Sequence record: MK327936.1
DNA: 64,000 bases
Strand: one strand, 5' to 3'
Origin: Escherichia phage vB_EcoM_G2540
Shown one piece after another: positions 2,448-64,000 of the stretch. Under the pieces are notes generated by a model, which had not been told where the DNA came from, searched no databases, and worked only from the letters and a program-made list of their open reading frames with translations. The first letter of the stretch is position 1. Every line of letters starts with the position of its first letter. Both the position numbers and the translations under genes were made by a program.

Positions 2448-4267
2448 TACTGGCTCATCCATTCTTTACGAAGGTCAGCATTATCTCCCATGAGCATTTC
2501 AAAAAGCTCTTTCCAGTTCTCAGGAAGTTTAACAACATCATATACTGGATTTTGAATCATCTCACGATATTCAGATTTTTCCAAAGAGCCAAGTCCTTTA
2601 ATATAACGGATGCTATGTTTAGGTAGAGCATCTTTAGCACTCTCATATTCAGCGACTGTATAAAACCATTCTTGTTTTTTACCAATCTGTGCGATGATTA
2701 CAGGAGTTTTGACAAAGCGAATTCGTCCTTGCTCAAACAGTTCTGGCCAATTACTAAAAAATCCAAGCAGAGAAGGATAAATGCTTCCTAGACCATCATG
2801 GTCAGCATCAGTCATAATAGCAATATTATGATAATTCAAGTTTTCAGCTTTTTCACCGAGAACTAATCCAGTGATTGCGCAAATATCAAACAGTTCTTTG
2901 TTTTTAAGCATGTCAGCATATGACATACCCCAACTGTTGAGAACTTTACCACGTAATGGATAACCACCGTGAAGTTCTTTATCACGAACATCAATAAGAT
3001 ATCCGATAGCCGAATCACCCTCAGTCAAGAAAAGAGTAGTATCAGCATCTTTACCACAAAGATTCGCTTTAATATGTTTATGAACCTTAGCTTTAGAAGC
3101 CTTTTTAGCTGCTTTAGTTTCTGCTGCTTTTTCTGCCGCTAATTTACGAGCCAAAGCAGCTTCAATAATCGGCATTAGAATTGCTTCATTATTTAGAATA
3201 GCACGTGAAATCTTTTTAGCATCAAGTTGAATATGACTACGGATTTCACCAAATGGAGAAGTCAAACGCTCTTTAGTTTGAGAATCAAATCGCATGTTTT
3301 TCATATCACGGACAAACATAACGATAGTCAAACATTCTTTAACGCGTGCTTTAGTCACATCAATTTTGAACTTACGTTTGATTTGTGGAATAAGGTCTTC
3401 ACAAATATCATCCATAACACAGTCAATGTGATGGCCACCATTCTTAGTGTGAATGTTATTCACATAAGTTAATTGACGAAAACCATCCGGTGAACGACCA
3501 ACCGCAATAGAGCAATTTTCTTGTTCTTGAACGATAGCATGCTCATCATATTGGCGTGCATATTTCTTAAAATTGCCCTGAACCTTTTTACCATTAAAGG
3601 TAAATTGAATATCAGGATAAACTACTGCAAGTGTCTGGAGACGATCTAGTGTAATGTCAAGATAAACTTGGGACAGCTCATTAGTTTCAAATGACATAAA
3701 ATCAGGAATGAAAGTAACGCGAGTTCCTTTCCATTTTCCTGGAATAGTTTCCCATGATTTATTTTCCATGCCATTTGAACAACGAACTACAATATTATTT
3801 TGACCATCACCAGTTTCACCGACAAACATCACAGAAAAAATGTTTGTCAAACTAGAACCAACACCATTCATACCACCGGTGACGCGTTCTTTATCATCAC
3901 CGAAGTTACCACCTGCTTTTGGAATAGTCCAGGCAGCAACAGGACCAGGAATTTCTTCACCAGTAGGTGTTTTGACCATCGCTTGTGGAATACCGCGACC
4001 GTTATCTTCAACTGTTACTTGATTGTTTTTAATAGTAATATTAATTTTATTTGCGAATTTAAACTTAGTACGAATACCTTCATCTACTGAGTTATCGATA
4101 ATTTCATCAATAAGCTTAACAAGACCAGGTACATACTGAACACTTTCCCATTTACCAAACAGAAAGCGCTCATGCATTTCATTAGCAGAAGAGCCAATAT
4201 ACATGCCGCTACGCTTTTTGATATGTTCAATATCGCTCAGAATTTTAATTTCATTCTTAATCATCAC
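2447..4267 (-). CDS. 39: DNA topoisomerase II large subunit (GyrB-like ATPase), unsplit 606-aa form
   Basis: N-terminus MMIKNEIKILSDIEHIKKRSGMYIGS..., GHKL ATPase motifs (EDNGRGIP); single ORF covers what T4 splits into genes 39 and 60. Confidence 0.85.
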   Translation of the reverse strand: MMIKNEIKILSDIEHIKKRSGMYIGSSANEMHERFLFGKWESVQYVPGLVKLIDEIIDNSVDEGIRTKFKFANKINITIKNNQVTVEDNGRGIPQAMVKTPTGEEIPGPVAAWTIPKAGGNFGDDKERVTGGMNGVGSSLTNIFSVMFVGETGDGQNNIVVRCSNGMENKSWETIPGKWKGTRVTFIPDFMSFETNELSQVYLDITLDRLQTLAVVYPDIQFTFNGKKVQGNFKKYARQYDEHAIVQEQENCSIAVGRSPDGFRQLTYVNNIHTKNGGHHIDCVMDDICEDLIPQIKRKFKIDVTKARVKECLTIVMFVRDMKNMRFDSQTKERLTSPFGEIRSHIQLDAKKISRAILNNEAILMPIIEAALARKLAAEKAAETKAAKKASKAKVHKHIKANLCGKDADTTLFLTEGDSAIGYLIDVRDKELHGGYPLRGKVLNSWGMSYADMLKNKELFDICAITGLVLGEKAENLNYHNIAIMTDADHDGLGSIYPSLLGFFSNWPELFEQGRIRFVKTPVIIAQIGKKQEWFYTVAEYESAKDALPKHSIRYIKGLGSLEKSEYREMIQNPVYDVVKLPENWKELFEMLMGDNADLRKEWMSQ

Positions 4268-4316
4268 TTATCCTCGTTTGGTTTCGGGAATATTATACTC
4301 CGGTAATCATAAAGCT

Positions 4317-4334
4317 AAAGGCCCGAAGGCCTTT
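4317..4334 (-). terminator. intrinsic terminator hairpin
   Basis: aaaggcc-cgaa-ggccttt stem-loop (UUCG tetraloop on the transcript) immediately 3' of the 4334..4603 ORF. Confidence 0.5.
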
Positions 4335-4603
4335 TATTTAAAACGAATAGTCGAATCCTTGAAGAATAGTCCAGAACATACTGTTCCTTCTACTTTCTGC
4401 CCAGTAGGTCCAATAGCACGAAATCCAGTATGCTGGAAATCATTTTCAGAGCAACCGAACCAATTATATCCAGTGATTTCAATATTAGTAAAACCACTTG
4501 AAGACAAAACTTTGGTTGCATTATCAGCATCAGTACATCCTATTAAAGACACTGCTAATACTAATGCTGCGATAGAACGATTAATATATTTCATAATTTT
4601 CAC
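4334..4603 (-). CDS. putative lipoprotein, 89 aa
   Basis: signal peptide with lipobox-like LIGC motif (MKIMKYINRSIAALVLAVSLIGC). Confidence 0.5.
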   Translation of the reverse strand: MKIMKYINRSIAALVLAVSLIGCTDADNATKVLSSSGFTNIEITGYNWFGCSENDFQHTGFRAIGPTGQKVEGTVCSGLFFKDSTIRFK

Positions 4604-15259: not shown

Positions 15260-15267
15260 TATTTATA
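15260..15267 (-). promoter_or_regulatory. late promoter (TATAAATA) for soc
   Basis: plus tatttata at 15260-15267 is the reverse complement of the T4 late consensus TATAAATA, ~30 bp upstream of the soc start. Confidence 0.6.
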
Positions 15268-15876: not shown

Positions 15877-17216
<1,340 letters not shown>

Positions 17217-17315: not shown

Positions 17316-17516
17316 ATGGCACAAAAATTAATGGCACTTGTTAATGCCATAAAAGGTAATAAAAAACGTATAGCTTTTACTATTTCTGCTATGGTAGGAA
17401 TTTTACTCTGGAACTTTATTTTATCACCAATTGCAATTGCGCATGGTGTTAATATTCCAGTAGTTACTCTTGATACATTCGTAGATCTAGCATTTGCTTT
17501 AGTTGGGTTAATTTAA
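17316..17516 (+). CDS. small hydrophobic (membrane) protein, 66 aa, plus strand
   Basis: strong Shine-Dalgarno AAGGAGG 5 nt upstream of the ATG; hydrophobic sequence; GATAAATA (one mismatch to the late consensus) at 17289-17296. Confidence 0.5.
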   Translation: MAQKLMALVNAIKGNKKRIAFTISAMVGILLWNFILSPIAIAHGVNIPVVTLDTFVDLAFALVGLI

Positions 17517-18541
17517 ATCTTGGCATATTTAGATAACCGCATTTTAGCCATTAACCCCTGGGCAATATTATTTTTCATATATTCCATAATTTGTTCAGGG
17601 GTTGCACCTTCCTTTCTAATCATATCATTAACATCTTTTGATTTCCAGGGAGATTTATCCCAAAACATAACCCTTTCTCCTGCATCAACTAATTTAGTCA
17701 TTCGCTTGATAGTGTCAGGGTGACGAGGCTCATTATCTAAAACCCACACTCGTCTATCTTTAAATGGAACAACTTCTAGGTCTAATTGACCACCCGTAAT
17801 AGCTATACCATTTTCAATAAAAAGTGAATCTATAGGTCCTTCTAGAACATATACATCACCATCTTTAACTCGTTCGACTCCATATATTTTTGTTGCCTCA
17901 GGATAAGCTTTGATGGTGATATATTTTTGAGGAGCATCTTTCTTTAATGCACGTCCTTGAAAAGACTCAGCTTTTCCATTAGCATTATAAATTGGAATAA
18001 CAAGACGAGGCTCAGAAATTTCCTTTTTGTATGTTCCCGGTGCTATGCTATTAACTAATTTAGGCCATTCGGTTGTAAACCAAAGATATTTCCATTTATC
18101 CTTTGGAATACAACGAGCTTTTACATATTTTATAATTGGATGGTCTTCCGCCAGTTTATCTAATCTAACACATGACGGAAGAGATTTAATTATTTTCTTC
18201 TCAGGATGTTTAGGAAGTTCTTTAGGTTTTTCTACTGGACGACTTTTACCTTTTTCTTTTCTTATTTCAAAGATATACTCACGATATAAATCAGGTTCAA
18301 ACTCCTTTAAATATATTCCGATTGGCGCATGATAGTTACAGTTATAACAATGAATATTTCCTTCATTATTATCACCATAATACCATCCACGCGCTTTATT
18401 TTGGTCGGTTTTTGAATCTCCACAAACTGGGCATCTAAACCGTAATTTAAAAGTTGAACTATTATTTACTTGTGTGAATTTAGGTAAATGAGCTAATGCA
18501 CGATATGCAAACTCATTATCAATCCAAGCTATTGATGACAT
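17513..18541 (-). CDS. 61: DNA primase gp61, 342 aa
   Basis: 342 aa as in T4; N-terminal zinc-binding domain (CPVCGDS...CYNCNYH) and TOPRIM-like core. Confidence 0.85.
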   Translation of the reverse strand: MSSIAWIDNEFAYRALAHLPKFTQVNNSSTFKLRFRCPVCGDSKTDQNKARGWYYGDNNEGNIHCYNCNYHAPIGIYLKEFEPDLYREYIFEIRKEKGKSRPVEKPKELPKHPEKKIIKSLPSCVRLDKLAEDHPIIKYVKARCIPKDKWKYLWFTTEWPKLVNSIAPGTYKKEISEPRLVIPIYNANGKAESFQGRALKKDAPQKYITIKAYPEATKIYGVERVKDGDVYVLEGPIDSLFIENGIAITGGQLDLEVVPFKDRRVWVLDNEPRHPDTIKRMTKLVDAGERVMFWDKSPWKSKDVNDMIRKEGATPEQIMEYMKNNIAQGLMAKMRLSKYAKI

Positions 18542-18544
18542 TCT

Positions 18545-18709
18545 TTACTCTTCTTTTTCTTTAGATTCCTCTTTTTTCTTTTTAGGAATCTGTTCAGGAC
18601 CTTTATTTACTACAGCACCTGATGTTGTTCCAGTAGAGATATTTTCAGGATTACCACCTGAATCTCCAGCAACCATATCTTCTTTAATAAATTCTTTATA
18701 TGTTTTCAT
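18545..18709 (-). CDS. small protein with internal-protein-like N-terminus, 54 aa (61.1 position)
   Basis: hand translation MKTYKEFIKEDMVAGDSGGNPENISTGTTSGAVVNKGPEQIPKKKKEESKEKEE; below the ORF-track cut-off. Confidence 0.45.
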   Translation of the reverse strand: MKTYKEFIKEDMVAGDSGGNPENISTGTTSGAVVNKGPEQIPKKKKEESKEKEE

Positions 18710-18710
18710 A

Positions 18711-19067
18711 TTAACCTCTATTCATAAAAGCATTAAAAATTTGGTCATCAATAGATGGAATAGCAACCTTTTCGGCATCATTTAGCAAATCATTAATTTC
18801 ATCAGATAGCATAACACATGTGCCTTTATTTCCTGTAATTGTTACTGCACAATTACGAACGTTTTCTTTATTAAATTTTAGGTTAATATTTTCGTAATGA
18901 AAATCCTTTAATGCTGAATATATTTTTAAAATAAAATTGTCTTTTACTACAATAAACCCAACCTCACTATTAAAACGTGGTTCATGGAAACTGTAATAAA
19001 CCTTTTCATCTATAAAATCGTATGAAATTTTTTCCATTTTTAAATATGAAAATTCAGAACTATACAT
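18711..19067 (-). CDS. hypothetical protein, 118 aa (61.2 position)
   Basis: ORF between gene 61 and sp. Confidence 0.45.
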   Translation of the reverse strand: MYSSEFSYLKMEKISYDFIDEKVYYSFHEPRFNSEVGFIVVKDNFILKIYSALKDFHYENINLKFNKENVRNCAVTITGNKGTCVMLSDEINDLLNDAEKVAIPSIDDQIFNAFMNRG

Positions 19068-19079
19068 ACTAACCTCTAA

Positions 19080-19373
19080 TTACTCACCTACCACTTCAGC
19101 GATGATATTTTTATTATTAAAGTTTTTATCGCAATACAGAACATAATTATACTGCATTACACCACCAGATTTAAGTTGTTTTTGCACTTCAGCTTTCATT
19201 TCAGGACGATCACGTTCAACGATATTCATAATATCCGCTTCAATTTGAATTTCAACTTCAGTCTGATCTGCAGTCATAGACCATTCGCACAAATCTTTGT
19301 CATAACCCGCCATAGCAGGCTGAGCAGCGCAAGAAGATAAAGCAAAAATTGCAGCAAAGATAAATTTTTTCAT
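19080..19373 (-). CDS. sp: Spackle-like periplasmic protein, 97 aa
   Basis: 97 aa with signal peptide (MKKFIFAAIFALSSCAAQPAMA); size and position as T4 sp (superinfection exclusion). Confidence 0.6.
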   Translation of the reverse strand: MKKFIFAAIFALSSCAAQPAMAGYDKDLCEWSMTADQTEVEIQIEADIMNIVERDRPEMKAEVQKQLKSGGVMQYNYVLYCDKNFNNKNIIAEVVGE

Positions 19374-19401
19374 GATAATCTCCTCAGTAGTTTATGTTTA
19401 T

Positions 19402-19431
19402 ATAGTATCTCAATTTCCAATAAAAGTAAAC
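19402..19431 (-). promoter_or_regulatory. T4-type early promoter
   Basis: plus gtaaac 19426-19431, 18-bp spacer, plus atagta 19402-19407. Confidence 0.45.
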
Positions 19432-19433
19432 AG

Positions 19434-19733
19434 TTATTTTAAAACTTCTGCATAATCACATGTTACAAACTGTTTCTCTAACTTGGCGATTTTACGAAAG
19501 TATCTTTTGCATTGACGAATCTGTCGCTTTGTAGGGCGCACAGCAAACTTAATAAATTCCACTCGACCAAATGGAGGGCTTTCTTCTGCCGGAATATCTA
19601 ATACTAATTCCCACGTATCTGCAATAAGTGCTTTGAATTGAGTATTTTTCCTGACATTATACGGAGTAGGTTTAAATAAAACGATATGCATATTATCCTC
19701 GGCAATCCACTTCACATACCTTCTTGTCATCAA
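19434..19733 (-). CDS. hypothetical protein, 99 aa (61.4 position)
   Basis: ORF between dmd and sp; overlaps dmd 3' end. Confidence 0.45.
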   Translation of the reverse strand: MMTRRYVKWIAEDNMHIVLFKPTPYNVRKNTQFKALIADTWELVLDIPAEESPPFGRVEFIKFAVRPTKRQIRQCKRYFRKIAKLEKQFVTCDYAEVLK

Positions 19734-19903: not shown

Positions 19904-19934
19904 TACTATACCATAGTCTTGTCAGCTTGTAAAC
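19904..19934 (-). promoter_or_regulatory. candidate early promoter
   Basis: plus gtaaac 19929-19934 overlapping the gene 41 stop; -10-like plus actata 19904-19909 (19-bp spacer). Confidence 0.4.
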
Positions 19935-23125: not shown

Positions 23126-24203
23126 TTAAGCGGTGATATCGAGAACGCGAAGAAGCTCTTCTTGCCATTCTGATTTTAAACTTTGATACTTAAATAGGGT
23201 TTGATGTTGTATTGTAATCAATTCCCGCCTCAAGCACTCATTGGTTTTTAACTCATTTACTAAAGTTTCAAAATCATTTTTATTCTTAACGTAGAATCTA
23301 GGGTCGTCAATAATAAGATGCTCGCTATCAAACTCTTCATCGATAAGCATCACAGCATCTGATGCCATGGCCTCCCAGACTCTAATTGTGATAAAATTAT
23401 CATTGTAATCTTTATCACCAATGACTATAGTTGCTATCGCTTGGCTATTCGTGTCAATAACCAAATTTGATGCTATTTTTTTGACTGAATGATGGAGCTA
23501 CATTCCACGGAAATTTAGGATTTTTAAACTGTTTCTCTTTAATAGTTCCAAACATTTTAATATTTAAATTGGTATCAAAAAGAAATTCAACTATTTTAGA
23601 CTCTCGTTGCCCACCTCTAAACGCGCCGCAGTACACAACGTCATATTTTTTAATAGTTTGATTCGCAGGTTTAAGTTTCTGTGAATGAATAAAATATCTA
23701 TCTACAGGAAAGTAATCATACTCAAATTCTTTACCGTATCTTTCGGTTGTTTTCTTATGAGCCTTTTTAGCAATTTCTAGATTTCTGCCCTGAGATATTA
23801 CTTTAAAGTCAGATGACACAAATAAGTCTTCATCTTTGTATTCACTTGAAAATTTCTTTCTGCGAACTACCGGAAGAACTTGCATAAATCCAAGACGGCC
23901 ATCAGTAAAAATATAATAAATTTTACTTCTATATTCAGCCATCAATTTATATGAATTTAAAACGATTGGATTTTTCTTTCCACCGAAGAAATTGATAGCG
24001 CCATTAATTACTATTAGTCTATCGTATGAATTTATATCAGTTACTACATCAAATGATATAGTGTATTCAGTATTTCGCATTGAAATTATATCAACGGAAT
24101 GCCCTAATTCAGTTAAAGACCTGCCTATTAAAATAGTTTCGGCTGATGATACTATTTTAAAATCACTCACAGTATTACTTAAATTTAGAATAGCTATTTT
24201 CAT
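23126..24203 (-). pseudogene. bgt: beta-glucosyltransferase-like gene split by a frameshift in an A7 run
   Basis: 249-aa N-terminal ORF plus 112-aa C-terminal ORF together resemble recalled T4 beta-gt (~60% identity); frames switch at the T7 run 23476-23482; removing one base restores FSQKIASNLVIDTNSQAIA, colinear with T4. Confidence 0.65.
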
Positions 24204-61996: not shown

Positions 61997-62534
61997 TTAC
62001 TATTTCCAAAAGTTTATTATTTTTAAGGTAATTAGCCTTTTCTAGGACTTCAGAAGCATATTTAGAACCTGCTTTAACATTCCATCCCGAATTATAAGAG
62101 GATATTGCTTTTCTTATATCGCCCTTATGTATATTTAACCAATAAGAAAGTTCAATGTACGCCCAGGAAGCTGAATTGGACCGTTTATTCAACATTCTTT
62201 TTATTTCTGCATCGGTCATATTATAACCAAGTTCCTTAACTCTTGCTCGCATAGTAGGCAAATAATTTTGGAACATTCCGTAGGCGTGATGCTTTGGTTT
62301 AGATTTTAAATTAACTCCGCCAGAGCTTTCTTGCCATAAAATAGCAGCCATTATATGACCTAATCCGCTCTTATGGATATTTTTGTGTGTTTTATATTTT
62401 CCATCCTTAGAAAATTGTTCCCCGAATTGATACGCGTAACGCATGTTATCGAGTTGGACATTACTGAAAGTATGCTCGGAGCTATGTGCCATCATTGAAA
62501 TGGCCAATAGACCAGCGAGTAGTGCTTTTCTCAT
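61989..62534 (-). CDS. periplasmic lytic transglycosylase (SLT domain), 181 aa
   Basis: signal peptide MRKALLAGLLAISMMAHS; catalytic-Glu motif AAILWQESSGG and downstream YN.G-type motif. Confidence 0.55.
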   Translation of the reverse strand: MRKALLAGLLAISMMAHSSEHTFSNVQLDNMRYAYQFGEQFSKDGKYKTHKNIHKSGLGHIMAAILWQESSGGVNLKSKPKHHAYGMFQNYLPTMRARVKELGYNMTDAEIKRMLNKRSNSASWAYIELSYWLNIHKGDIRKAISSYNSGWNVKAGSKYASEVLEKANYLKNNKLLEIVND

Positions 62535-62541
62535 GCTTACC

Positions 62542-63003
62542 TCATTGAGTTTTAATTACTGCTTTAGAAGCCTTTCCTGGTAAACGACGACTGTTGATAA
62601 TTGCCATCCTGCATTGAAGTGACGGGTTTTTGAACTTCTCATTAGGCTTACAAACCGTAAATCCAAGCCAAAGATTTCCATCTGTGATTTCTAAACGTCC
62701 AGGACGATATTCAACCCCATCAATAAAATCCTCGTCAATGTCAGGACGCGGAGGCATACTCAGGAATTCATTAACTTCTAAAACATGGTCTTTTATTTTA
62801 TGGAATAATTCAAAAACATATGTCTCATCAATCTCCCGTTGAATTGCACGATCAAGAAGATGCTGAGAATATTTTAGATGAAACGATGAGACTCCTGCTG
62901 CTTTTGATGCCTCACGAATCTCATTGTTAATTTGACGAAACTCCGACTCAAAGTGACGACGAAGCTTATTTCGACGGATAAAAACTTCTGTATTGATAGT
63001 CAT
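62542..63003 (-). CDS. regB: endoribonuclease RegB, 153 aa
   Basis: 153 aa as in T4; position between the vs block and denV. Confidence 0.75.
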   Translation of the reverse strand: MTINTEVFIRRNKLRRHFESEFRQINNEIREASKAAGVSSFHLKYSQHLLDRAIQREIDETYVFELFHKIKDHVLEVNEFLSMPPRPDIDEDFIDGVEYRPGRLEITDGNLWLGFTVCKPNEKFKNPSLQCRMAIINSRRLPGKASKAVIKTQ

Positions 63004-63030
63004 GTTATTCTCCTCTTAACTGATAGAAAA

Positions 63031-63060
63031 ATTATACCACAGTCAAGAGGAAAAGTAAAC
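63031..63060 (-). promoter_or_regulatory. T4-type early promoter
   Basis: plus gtaaac 63055-63060, 18-bp spacer, plus attata 63031-63036; upstream of regB. Confidence 0.5.
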
Positions 63061-63062
63061 AG

Positions 63063-63650
63063 TTATTCTTTAAATCTAATCAATTTATTCATAGACTTTG
63101 AAACTTCTGCACGAACCTCATGTAAGTTTTTAAGCTGTTCAAGACGCTGCTCATAGTAAGCAATTTCATCTTCTTCGAGACAGTCCTGTGAATCTTCTTT
63201 AAGATAACGTGCATAGTCCTGAAAAGCTTTACGGACTACTTCCTGGAAGTCATCAAGACTTTGAATTTTCTTAGGAGCGGCAGATACACGACGAGGTGCA
63301 GTATAATACTCATAACCAAACCCTGCACTTAATTGAGCCATTAGTATTTTTCCTCTGGTTGGAATATCGCTGATGTCAGGAACTTCAGTATCTTTTATAC
63401 TAAACCCACGTTTTAAGCATTCCGTTATAATGTCTGATTGACGCTTTCGCAAAAATTCTAACTTATCGTAAAAGAACGTAACATGACCAGAGCCTAAAAT
63501 AAACTCGGAAGATATTTTAAAATCTTTAACCCGCTTACCATTTGCCACATGTTTACGAACTATACCAAAAACACGCGGCAATTCACGATACTCAGCCATA
63601 AGATGTTGGTCGGTCAGTTCAGAAACAAGTGTTAAATTGATACGAGTCAT
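63063..63650 (-). CDS. denV: endonuclease V (pyrimidine-dimer DNA glycosylase) homologue with divergent, extended C-terminus, ~195 aa
   Basis: first ~100 aa match recalled T4 DenV ([12 protein letters not shown]...[10 protein letters not shown]); T4 is 138 aa; start placed at MTRINL after a GGAGGA Shine-Dalgarno. Confidence 0.7.
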
Positions 63651-63677
63651 AATTTCCTCCAAGTAGTTGATGAATGT

Positions 63678-63707
63678 ATAGTATCAAAGTCCTTGGAGGA
63701 AGTAAAC
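63678..63707 (-). promoter_or_regulatory. T4-type early promoter
   Basis: plus gtaaac 63702-63707, 18-bp spacer, plus atagta 63678-63683; upstream of denV. Confidence 0.45.
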
Positions 63708-63708
63708 A

Positions 63709-63990
63709 CTATTTTTCTGAAGCGCCTGAAATATATTTTTCAAGACGTTGTTTCATTAGCGAGCCGTTCTTAGCGATTTCTTCTGGTTTATCGCACATAC
63801 GCAACAAGGCTTCAAGCTTAACGATATCGCTGGTACGTTCAAATTTGCGAGTATCTATCTTACTAGCAAGTTCAGAAATACGTGCTAATAGACTTTCAGC
63901 TTCAACCAAAGCTGCACCTAGCTTAGTTGCAAATGTGTCAGTAGCTTCGTTAAGAATAGATTCTGATAAAAATTCACTATATGTTTTCAT
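63709..63990 (-). CDS. internal protein (IPII-like) with capsid-targeting N-terminus, 93 aa
   Basis: N-terminus MKTYSEFLSE resembles the T4 internal-protein capsid-targeting sequence (MKTYQEFIAE); position next to denV. Confidence 0.55.
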   Translation of the reverse strand: MKTYSEFLSESILNEATDTFATKLGAALVEAESLLARISELASKIDTRKFERTSDIVKLEALLRMCDKPEEIAKNGSLMKQRLEKYISGASEK

Positions 63991-64000
63991 ATATACGCTT

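Follow-up and report, generated by a model that had tools for sequence, protein, structure and literature searches.

What does gene 61.1, a 54-codon open reading frame (ORF) wedged in front of the primase gene, contribute to a T4-like phage? The question is raised by a 64,000-nt stretch of Escherichia phage vB_EcoM_G2540 (MK327936.1; the window is this whole stretch), which is DNA of a Tequatrovirus, a T4-like coliphage. The ORF found here is the orthologue of T4 gene 61.1, identified as such by its position and its name, and it is a real gene conserved across the T4-like phages (Straboviridae).

18545..18709, minus strand: gene 61.1 orthologue, 54 codons plus TAA (ORF list, translation, annotated coding sequence, PHROG 1823)

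The translated product, gp61.1, reads MKTYKEFIKEDMVAGDSGGNPENISTGTTSGAVVNKGPEQIPKKKKEESKEKEE. An earlier note, made from the letters of this DNA, had placed a 54-aa ORF of exactly this sequence between a 118-aa ORF and the primase gene. The ORF does exist there: an identical sequence is annotated in Escherichia phage vB_EcoM-fFiEco06 (KMC06_gp034, 'hypothetical protein'), and its absence from the list of ORFs available to that note was due only to a length cut-off. We conclude that gp61.1 is likely to be connected with the phage head. Our preferred reading, to which we give a probability of about 0.5, is that gp61.1 would be a prohead-targeted substrate of the prohead protease gp21, yielding a 44-residue peptide that resembles the N-fist of gp23.

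Homology of gp61.1 to the N-terminal segment of gp23

Pairwise and profile comparisons show that the conserved core of gp61.1 (residues 7-47) is homologous to residues 62-102 of gp23. The gp23 segment, which aligns without gaps, runs from the end of the propeptide through the cleavage site between LTE65 and A66 and the N-fist (66-91) into the beginning of the N-arm.

18596..18679, minus strand: residues 11-38, DMVAGDSGGNPENISTGTTSGAVVNKGP, homologue of gp23 66-93, which includes the N-fist (BLASTP, hhalign, hmmsearch)
18548..18595, minus strand: residues 39-54, EQIPKKKKEESKEKEE, a lysine-rich tail of mixed charge; residues 39-47 align with gp23 94-102, where the N-arm begins (hhalign)

BLASTP of gp61.1 against gp23 of a phage of the identical type gave an ungapped match of residues 2-38 to gp23 57-93, with 16 of 37 positions identical (E 1e-8). 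Residues F7-I8-K9-E10 fall on F62-L63-T64-E65, the maturation site that is cut after E65, and DMVAGDSGGNPENISTGTTSGAVVNKGP falls on AEIGGDHGYNATNIAAGQTSGAVTQIGP. When a profile of 56 family members was compared by hhalign with a profile of gp23 N-termini, itself built from an alignment of six phage genomes, the two matched over 41 columns (7-47 against 62-102) with a probability of 97.2% and an E-value of 3.3e-11. Searching all PDB sequences with the family profile (hmmsearch) returned nothing significant apart from T4 gp23 and gp23*, whose E-values ran from 1.6e-11 to 9e-9; the match ranked after them had an E-value of 0.25. The 54-residue protein has no match at E <=1 in Pfam, including the Gp23 family (PF07068). 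The pattern common to gp61.1 and gp23 can be written as hydrophobic-x-E, x-x-hydrophobic-[AG]-G-D-x-G ... N-I-[AS]-x-G-x-T-S-G-A-V ... G-P.

The prohead protease gp21 cleaves after Glu in the motif I/L-x-E (PMC12991175). In the 61.1 family the P1 Glu is present in 56 of the 56 aligned members, 2-3 residues before an [MV][VIT]AGD motif, and the residue two before it (P3) is hydrophobic in 51 of them (Ile or Leu in 35), while P2 is variable. This hydrophobic-x-Glu site corresponds to the gp21 recognition pattern, at the position aligned with the gp23 cut, and the pattern holds whether the module stands at the N-terminus, as in the short forms of the family, or after a domain of ~100 aa, as in the long forms. 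Because the gp23 residues upstream of A66 are discarded, similarity in that part can serve only the functions of a precursor, such as recognition by the protease or the scaffold.

The N-fist, defined as residues 66-91 of gp23* (PMC7136217), is 25 residues long, touches four subunits, and contributes to the Soc site (PMC9958956; PMC9546572). Before expansion the N-terminal region of gp23 is located within the prohead, where it probably sits on the scaffolding core (PMC9546572); the N-fist is disordered there, and it is externalised when the capsid expands (PMC9958956; PMC9546572). AlphaFold2 (AF2) modelled the 54-aa gp61.1 with low confidence (pLDDT 61) and with helices only at residues 4-13 and 21-26, predicting the module to be disordered. 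Both the gp23 N-fist and the gp61.1 module are thus, by observation or prediction, disordered until bound, and the predicted disorder of the lone module parallels the state of the N-fist before capsid expansion. There are also differences from gp23: gp61.1 has no HK97-fold body, carries a lysine-rich tail in place of the N-arm, lacks the 55 upstream propeptide residues, and, unlike gp23, is encoded in the early helicase-primase cluster.

Among six genera, the 61.1 module was identical to gp23 at 14-21 of 39 positions, and the 61.1 modules were identical to each other at 20-25 of 39, which makes gp23 almost as close to a 61.1 module as another such module is. By eye, the modules of KP27, SW69-9, and MP1 appeared to vary together with the N-fist of their own gp23. 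A permutation test over the six genera led us to reject this (diagonal sum 108 versus a mean of 106.5; a sum at least this large arose in 232 of 720 permutations). The similarity between 61.1 and gp23 is family-wide and does not track lineage.

Some records already name gp61.1 a 'major capsid domain-containing protein', a label that reflects the N-terminal similarity only. Automated annotation had therefore noticed the likeness to gp23; a paper interpreting it was not found in our literature search, nor was any discussion of gp61.1 function, the mentions being confined to two genome tables. The T4 core-genome review does not mention the gene.

A leader resembling the capsid-targeting sequence

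The first ten residues of gp61.1 resemble the capsid-targeting sequence (CTS) of the T4 internal proteins (IPs), and one further gene in the window has a similar start.

18680..18709, minus strand: residues 1-10, MKTYKEFIKE, CTS-like propeptide ending in I8-K9-E10 (translation, CTS match, gp21 specificity, gp23 alignment)
63709..63990, minus strand: comparator, internal head protein gene at the ipII position, starting MKTYSEFLSE (ORF list; PHROG 3499 'internal head protein', E 1e-46)

MKTYQEFIAE is the T4 sequence as published; internal proteins undergo a single cut beside it, and it is sufficient to package foreign proteins (PMC8442874). The gp61.1 leader is identical to it at 8 of 10 positions and ends in I-K-E, an instance of the I/L-x-E motif, which places the predicted gp21 cut between E10 (18680) and D11 (18679). 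Only two of the 828 ORFs in the window that start with ATG and encode at least 30 aa fit the strict pattern M[KRA][TSK][YFI]x[ED][FLVIM][ILVM]xE, and these are 61.1 and the ORF at 63709..63990. The earlier note had pointed to a capsid-targeting-like N-terminus and to the same signature in the IPII-like gene; both observations stand, and our counts confirm that, as a matter of sequence, the resemblance of the leader to the CTS is more than chance.

The N-termini of gp61.1 and of the 63709..63990 protein both weakly match PHROGs 3966 and 15565 (unknown function). For gp61.1 the weak matches (E 0.02-0.08) all start at its residue 1 and cover its residues 1-47 (PHROG 3966), 1-16 (PHROG 15565), and 1-25 (PHROG 5341, 'internal virion protein'). 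Many unrelated short forms in the 61.1 family begin with MK[TS][FYI]x[ED][FL]..E. At the DNA level, where a recent exchange between the two leaders was considered as a candidate explanation, the first 30 nt of 61.1 and of the 63709..63990 gene are identical at 24 positions, and all six shared residues other than Met use the same codons (P ~0.055 from codon bias alone).

The known T4 proteins closest to gp61.1 in this respect differ from it elsewhere. The internal proteins, which bear the CTS and are processed by gp21, share with gp61.1 the ten-residue leader MKTY.EF..E with its I-x-E end, and, like gp61.1, they are not essential in the laboratory. Beyond the leader there is no similarity: the PHROG search found no homology to internal-protein families outside the first 10-25 residues, and the IP bodies are hypervariable whereas the gp61.1 core is conserved. 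The propeptide of the vertex protein gp24, MAKINELLRE followed by Ser, resembles the gp61.1 leader in its length, in the spacing of its hydrophobic residues (positions 4, 7, and 8), and in the Glu at position 10. It is cut by gp21 after residue 10, mature gp24* being numbered from aa 11 (PMC9546572). Whereas gp61.1 amounts to little more than a leader and an N-fist-like segment, gp24 has the complete HK97 fold of a capsid protein and no N-fist. The conserved core of gp61.1 reproduces, on its own, the part of gp23 with the cleavage site and the N-fist, and in the T-even phages it is preceded only by a ten-residue leader nearly identical to the IP targeting sequence.

Conservation and the short and long forms of gp61.1

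Along its full length (residues 1-54 of 54) gp61.1 matched PHROG 1823 (E 7e-34), and it also matched the C-terminal 46 positions of PHROG 2086 (E 2.6e-16), which holds the long forms. Using tblastn, we found 61.1 in 1,432 phage records, where it is mostly called 'hypothetical' and where the hosts include Escherichia, Klebsiella, Acinetobacter, Aeromonas, Vibrio, and others. An exhaustive search with hidden Markov models (HMMs) gave 52 family representatives at the 50% identity level. Their sizes fall into short forms of 50-70 aa, long forms of ~120-185 aa, and a few of ~240 aa; every member has the conserved module, followed by a K/R-rich tail.

These data bear on whether the ORF could be a chance or vestigial reading frame devoid of function. 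Such a view might appeal to its very small size, to the failure to detect the T4 protein, and to a knock-down that leaves fitness unaffected (see below). Yet the full-length PHROG match, the 1,432 records, and 52 representatives that keep the protein motif despite deep divergence of the DNA refute it. The ORF also has a good ribosome site, and a homologue has been detected by mass spectrometry. We therefore regard this explanation as having almost no chance of being correct.

18715..18718, minus strand: GAGG Shine-Dalgarno sequence, 5 nt 5' of the 61.1 ATG and overlapping the final codons of the upstream ORF (seen in the sequence itself)

The long forms (PHROG 2086; KVP40, phiR1-RT, and RB69-type phages) have the same C-terminal module, the same basic tail, and the same place upstream of primase as the short ones. 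In the long forms the cleavage-type site is internal, behind a helical domain of ~100 aa, whereas in the short forms it lies near the N-terminus. The additional N-terminal domain occurs in 613 phage records, including RB69-type phages, CC31, KP27, Acinetobacter, Aeromonas, and Vibrio phages, and the Sinorhizobium phage phiM12. No Tequatrovirus was among the matches listed (60 of the 613 records); the 148 records from Escherichia are too few to hold the several hundred T4-type genomes. Within the 64-kb window we found no second copy of either the module or the long-form N-domain. Because the matches listed included no Tequatrovirus and the window has no such domain, the T-even short form is probably the derived state. 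AF2 predicted the N-domain of a long form to be helical with confidence and the module to be disordered (pLDDT <50); a search for structural relatives of the N-domain model found none.

Several further observations were made on relatives of the family. Searching BFVD with the long-form model matched parts of longer proteins, A0A411BBR2 (672 aa), A0A7S5R3P1 (387), A0A6J7WVK5 (396), and A0A1B1IT15 (913), with E-values of 9e-9 to 1.6e-3; these could be fusions, for example with a helicase or primase, or artefacts of gene calling. In four metagenomic members (P0037, P0053, P0056, and P0057; 237-251 aa and 149 aa) a second segment comes after the module and basic tail, with a leader-like stretch, M..[DNG]FK[QA]F[VM]E.LE, at its start and then ~100 more residues, reflecting either read-through of two adjoining leader-bearing genes or true tandem architectures. 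The T6-type protein (62 aa; P0002 and P0004) ends in KKKKRNLKKKKSKNVINTLD at the point where the window phage has KKKKEESKEKEE (~18555..18590, minus strand). The difference is consistent with a 1-nt frame change in an A-rich run; the T6-type frame gives a strongly basic tail like that of the rest of the family and prolongs the ORF over the primase start.

A contig from an uncultivated phage (L041, IMGVR_UViG_3300029448_000260) was considered as a possible split 61.1 because an ORF neighbouring its N-domain ORF looked module-like by eye. The HMM matched the N-domain ORF only (E 6.5e-16; the neighbour gave E ~1), and we rejected the idea. The matching ORF, at 4001..4486 of the contig, is a homologue of the long-form N-domain; it carries no N-fist module, and neither a primase nor a helicase gene is nearby. 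Between 2975 and 5816 the same contig carries a run of small ORFs starting MKTFKTY.., MKSFKQHIKE.., MPKSFKEFEE.., and MKTFKEYMNY.., which, judging from these starts, may be a cluster of leader-bearing head proteins.

Detection in particles, charge, and the possibility of an injected effector

In purified particles of the Yersinia phage phiR1-RT, the 160-aa gp61.1 (Gp036) was detected in an LC-MS/MS analysis with 9 unique peptides and 61.9% coverage (PMC6893735 Tables S3, S4). The protein was re-annotated as structural and ranks beside gp2 and gp12, which are bona fide structural proteins (PMC6893735). The mature peptide predicted after cleavage at the conserved Glu carries a net positive charge in 47 of 56 family members (median +3), with a K/R-rich tail (median +4.5).

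The earlier note had suggested that the ORF may encode a small peptide that is packaged and injected. The link with the head has held up, through the gp23 homology, the conserved hydrophobic-x-Glu site, and the phiR1-RT particles; likeness to the internal proteins past the leader and a basic mature peptide have not, the peptide of the window phage having a net charge of -2. An IP-like effector, packaged with the DNA and injected to act in the next host cell, would explain the CTS-like leader, the basic charge of most family members, which is what a DNA-associated peptide inside the head should have, and the presence of the homologue in particles. However, the core hardly varies among phages whose hosts are very different, whereas the IPs are just the reverse, hypervariable and host-specific (PMC3012670), and the N-fist that gp61.1 resembles ends up on the outer surface of the capsid and not in the DNA. 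We consider this fate for the peptide unlikely.

A proposed role for gp61.1 in the prohead

Under the reading we favor, gp61.1 would enter the assembling prohead through contacts with the scaffolding core that are also made by the gp23 N-terminus and by the IP leader. There gp21 would cut it after Glu10, between IKE and DMVAGD, as it cuts gp23 between LTE65 and AEIGGD, and the 44 residues released would consist of the N-fist-like segment plus the lysine-rich tail. The peptide might then be kept with the DNA, be docked on the lattice, or be expelled like the fragments of the scaffold. Retention with DNA would suit the basic peptide of most family members, though less so the negatively charged one of the window phage. 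Head proteins that are targeted by a leader and processed by gp21 are classic T4 biology; a stand-alone paralogue of the N-terminal staple of the capsid protein is new.

A more specific version goes beyond this. N-fists are absent or disordered beside the gp24 vertices or the portal, and it is conceivable that gp61.1, delivered by its CTS and released by gp21, acts as an N-fist in trans, docking at these positions, where the neighbour provides none. Alternatively, it might hold the scaffold-binding sites of gp23 and so set head length. We see either role as a long shot at present.

Several points weigh against gp61.1 as a processed prohead peptide. T4 61.1 is classed as an 'early' transcript, and the protein was undetected in a time-resolved proteome of infected cells (PMC9697503 Table S2). 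We found no TATAAATA late promoter upstream of 61.1, the nearest ones on the minus strand being at 15260 and 59819. The gene is fixed immediately 5' of the primase gene in 24 of 26 loci. The 61.1 modules are no closer to the gp23 of their own phage than to that of other phages (the 232 of 720 permutations given above). As to the particles, gp32, lysozyme, DNA polymerase, and other proteins that are likely carry-over are on the phiR1-RT list too, which leaves room for gp61.1 to be carry-over as well (PMC6893735), and, because 62% of the 160 aa were covered, the N-domain of that form must have been present, not the module by itself. The predicted mature peptide of the window phage has, as noted, a net charge of -2, its tail contributing +1, whereas the mature IPs are basic. 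Of lesser weight, the texts describing T4 head structures by cryo-electron microscopy (PMC9546572, PMC7136217) do not contain the terms 'unassigned' or 'extra density', and one of them does not contain 'unidentified'.

The timing and the location of the gene do not in themselves exclude a role in the head, because T4 ipII and ipIII are also 'early' transcripts that give 'late' proteins (PMC9697503 Table S2) and because a head gene, gene 40, is a member of the same gene cluster as 61.1.

Gene context and the alternatives it raises

The locus is tightly packed: the stop codon (TAA) of the upstream 118-aa ORF ends 1 nt short of the 61.1 start (ATG, 18709..18707), and a 3-nt spacer separates the 61.1 stop (TAA, 18547..18545) from the ATG of the primase gene, all on the minus strand. 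The ORF list contains no ORF of at least 30 aa on the opposite strand overlapping 61.1. The order of genes on the same strand is gene 41 (helicase), dmd, 61.4, sp, the 118-aa 61.2-like ORF, 61.1, and gene 61 (primase). Ahead of dmd there is a sigma-70-like site (19933..19905), and at 23211..23236 a site resembling a MotA box. Over positions 17400-19500 the window shows 100% identity to vB_EcoM-fFiEco06 and to four further records and 95-99% identity to several hundred others.

17513..18541, minus strand: primase gene 61, directly 3' of 61.1 (ORF list and annotation)
18711..19067, minus strand: 61.2-like ORF of 118 aa, the upstream neighbour, matching the C-terminal half of Pfam AdfA (anti-DarT factor)

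The 61.2-like ORF matches only positions 113-211 of AdfA (anti-DarT factor A), and T4 61.2 is 627 nt long; the ORF looks like a truncated or re-started anti-DarT gene.

The position next to primase raises the possibility that gp61.1 is a replication accessory working with the gp61 primase and the gp41 helicase, for example as a lysine-tailed adaptor that binds DNA or protein, its gp23 likeness being an evolutionary leftover. In 24 of 26 IMG/VR loci 61.1 lies directly upstream of the primase gene on the same strand, as it does by T4 coordinates. In VH7D, CC2, SW69-9, and MP1 it is placed between the helicase and primase genes; in DP45 it is directly upstream of primase, and in RB49 and KP27 two small ORFs separate it from that gene. 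The 3-nt spacer to gene 61, the early transcript class, and the K/R-rich tail fit a replication role as well. For this reason the statement in the earlier note that the product is a packaged peptide 'rather than a replication factor' went too far: with 61.1 tied to primase in nearly all lineages, transcribed early in T4, and preceded by no TATAAATA, such a conclusion cannot be drawn. We nevertheless consider a replication accessory a doubtful explanation.

A second alternative takes the gp23 homology as functional and places it outside the head. Here gp61.1 would be an early, never packaged mimic or decoy in the cytoplasm, competing with gp23 for a partner. The partner might be stray active gp21, which would be buffered before proheads exist and whose effect on host sensors would be blunted; the scaffold protein gp22, with consequences for shell nucleation or head length; or some factor of the host by which the gp23 N-terminus is recognised. 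Such a decoy would also account for the homology to gp23 and for the hydrophobic-x-Glu site, and the transcript is early, made ahead of gp23 and gp21. Its neighbours include the counter-defence and exclusion genes dmd, sp, and the AdfA-like 61.2. A CD-NTase of the CBASS defence system is activated when gp21 cleaves it at a loop bearing an LPE motif (PMC12991175), and the gp23 mutations A66D, A94V, and G97S, which affect head length, lie within the segment copied by 61.1 (PMC9546572). In addition, knock-down of T4 61.1 by CRISPRi-ART had no fitness effect (score -0.84, p 0.93), nor did that of gene 61 (PMC11879866 supplement), and accessory genes usually show no such effect when the host is a laboratory one.

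On the other hand, the conservation of 61.1, in phages of Escherichia, Klebsiella, Acinetobacter, Aeromonas, Vibrio, and Sinorhizobium, is far wider than that of typical counter-defence genes, and adjacent genes come and go while 61.1 stays. A decoy would have no need of the CTS-like leader, and the homologue was detected in purified phiR1-RT particles. Of the alternatives to processing in the prohead we find the decoy the most credible, though only as a tentative proposal.

Other features of the window

Two further observations concern other parts of the window. An ORF of 186 aa (16656..17216, minus strand) overlaps the dam methyltransferase gene (15877..16656) stop to start and has a sub-threshold Pfam match to DpnII, a GATC restriction endonuclease (E 0.0045; 16.8 bits, the cut-off being 23). 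This similarity points to a possible nuclease partner for the phage Dam. By T4 coordinates, the matching T4 region is only ~300 nt.

The denV ORF (63063..63662, minus strand) retains only the N-terminal part of the enzyme (Pfam Pyr_excise, residues 1-86), followed by an unrelated C-terminus. Megablast placed a break near 63364, and no phage record covers at least 80% of 62500-64000. It appears that the region corresponding to T4 vs.3-vs.8 has been deleted, leaving denV chimeric. The otherwise identical phage vB_EcoM-fFiEco06 has an intact denV, then lysozyme e, and no ipII-like gene at this place.

Significance for T4-like phages

Gene 61.1 is among the few small genes of unknown function that practically all of the T4-like phages examined retain, be they coliphages, vibriophages, or a phage of Sinorhizobium. 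The homology described here turns an anonymous ORF into a precise hypothesis of T4 head assembly, with cleavage at Glu10, presence in the prohead or head, and an effect on head length or stability as its predictions. The IP targeting sequence, the leader of gp24, and the stretch that ends the gp23 propeptide are alike, which suggests a single recognition element in three versions; were that so, it would matter for the engineering of T4 heads to carry cargo. Were gp61.1 instead a decoy for gp21 or for sensors of the capsid protein, it would represent a widely conserved counter-measure to immunity that senses proteases or capsids. If it does act as an N-fist in trans, or sets head length from the scaffold-binding sites of gp23, gp61.1 would define a new type of accessory factor for the capsid, one shared by the T4-like phages sampled.

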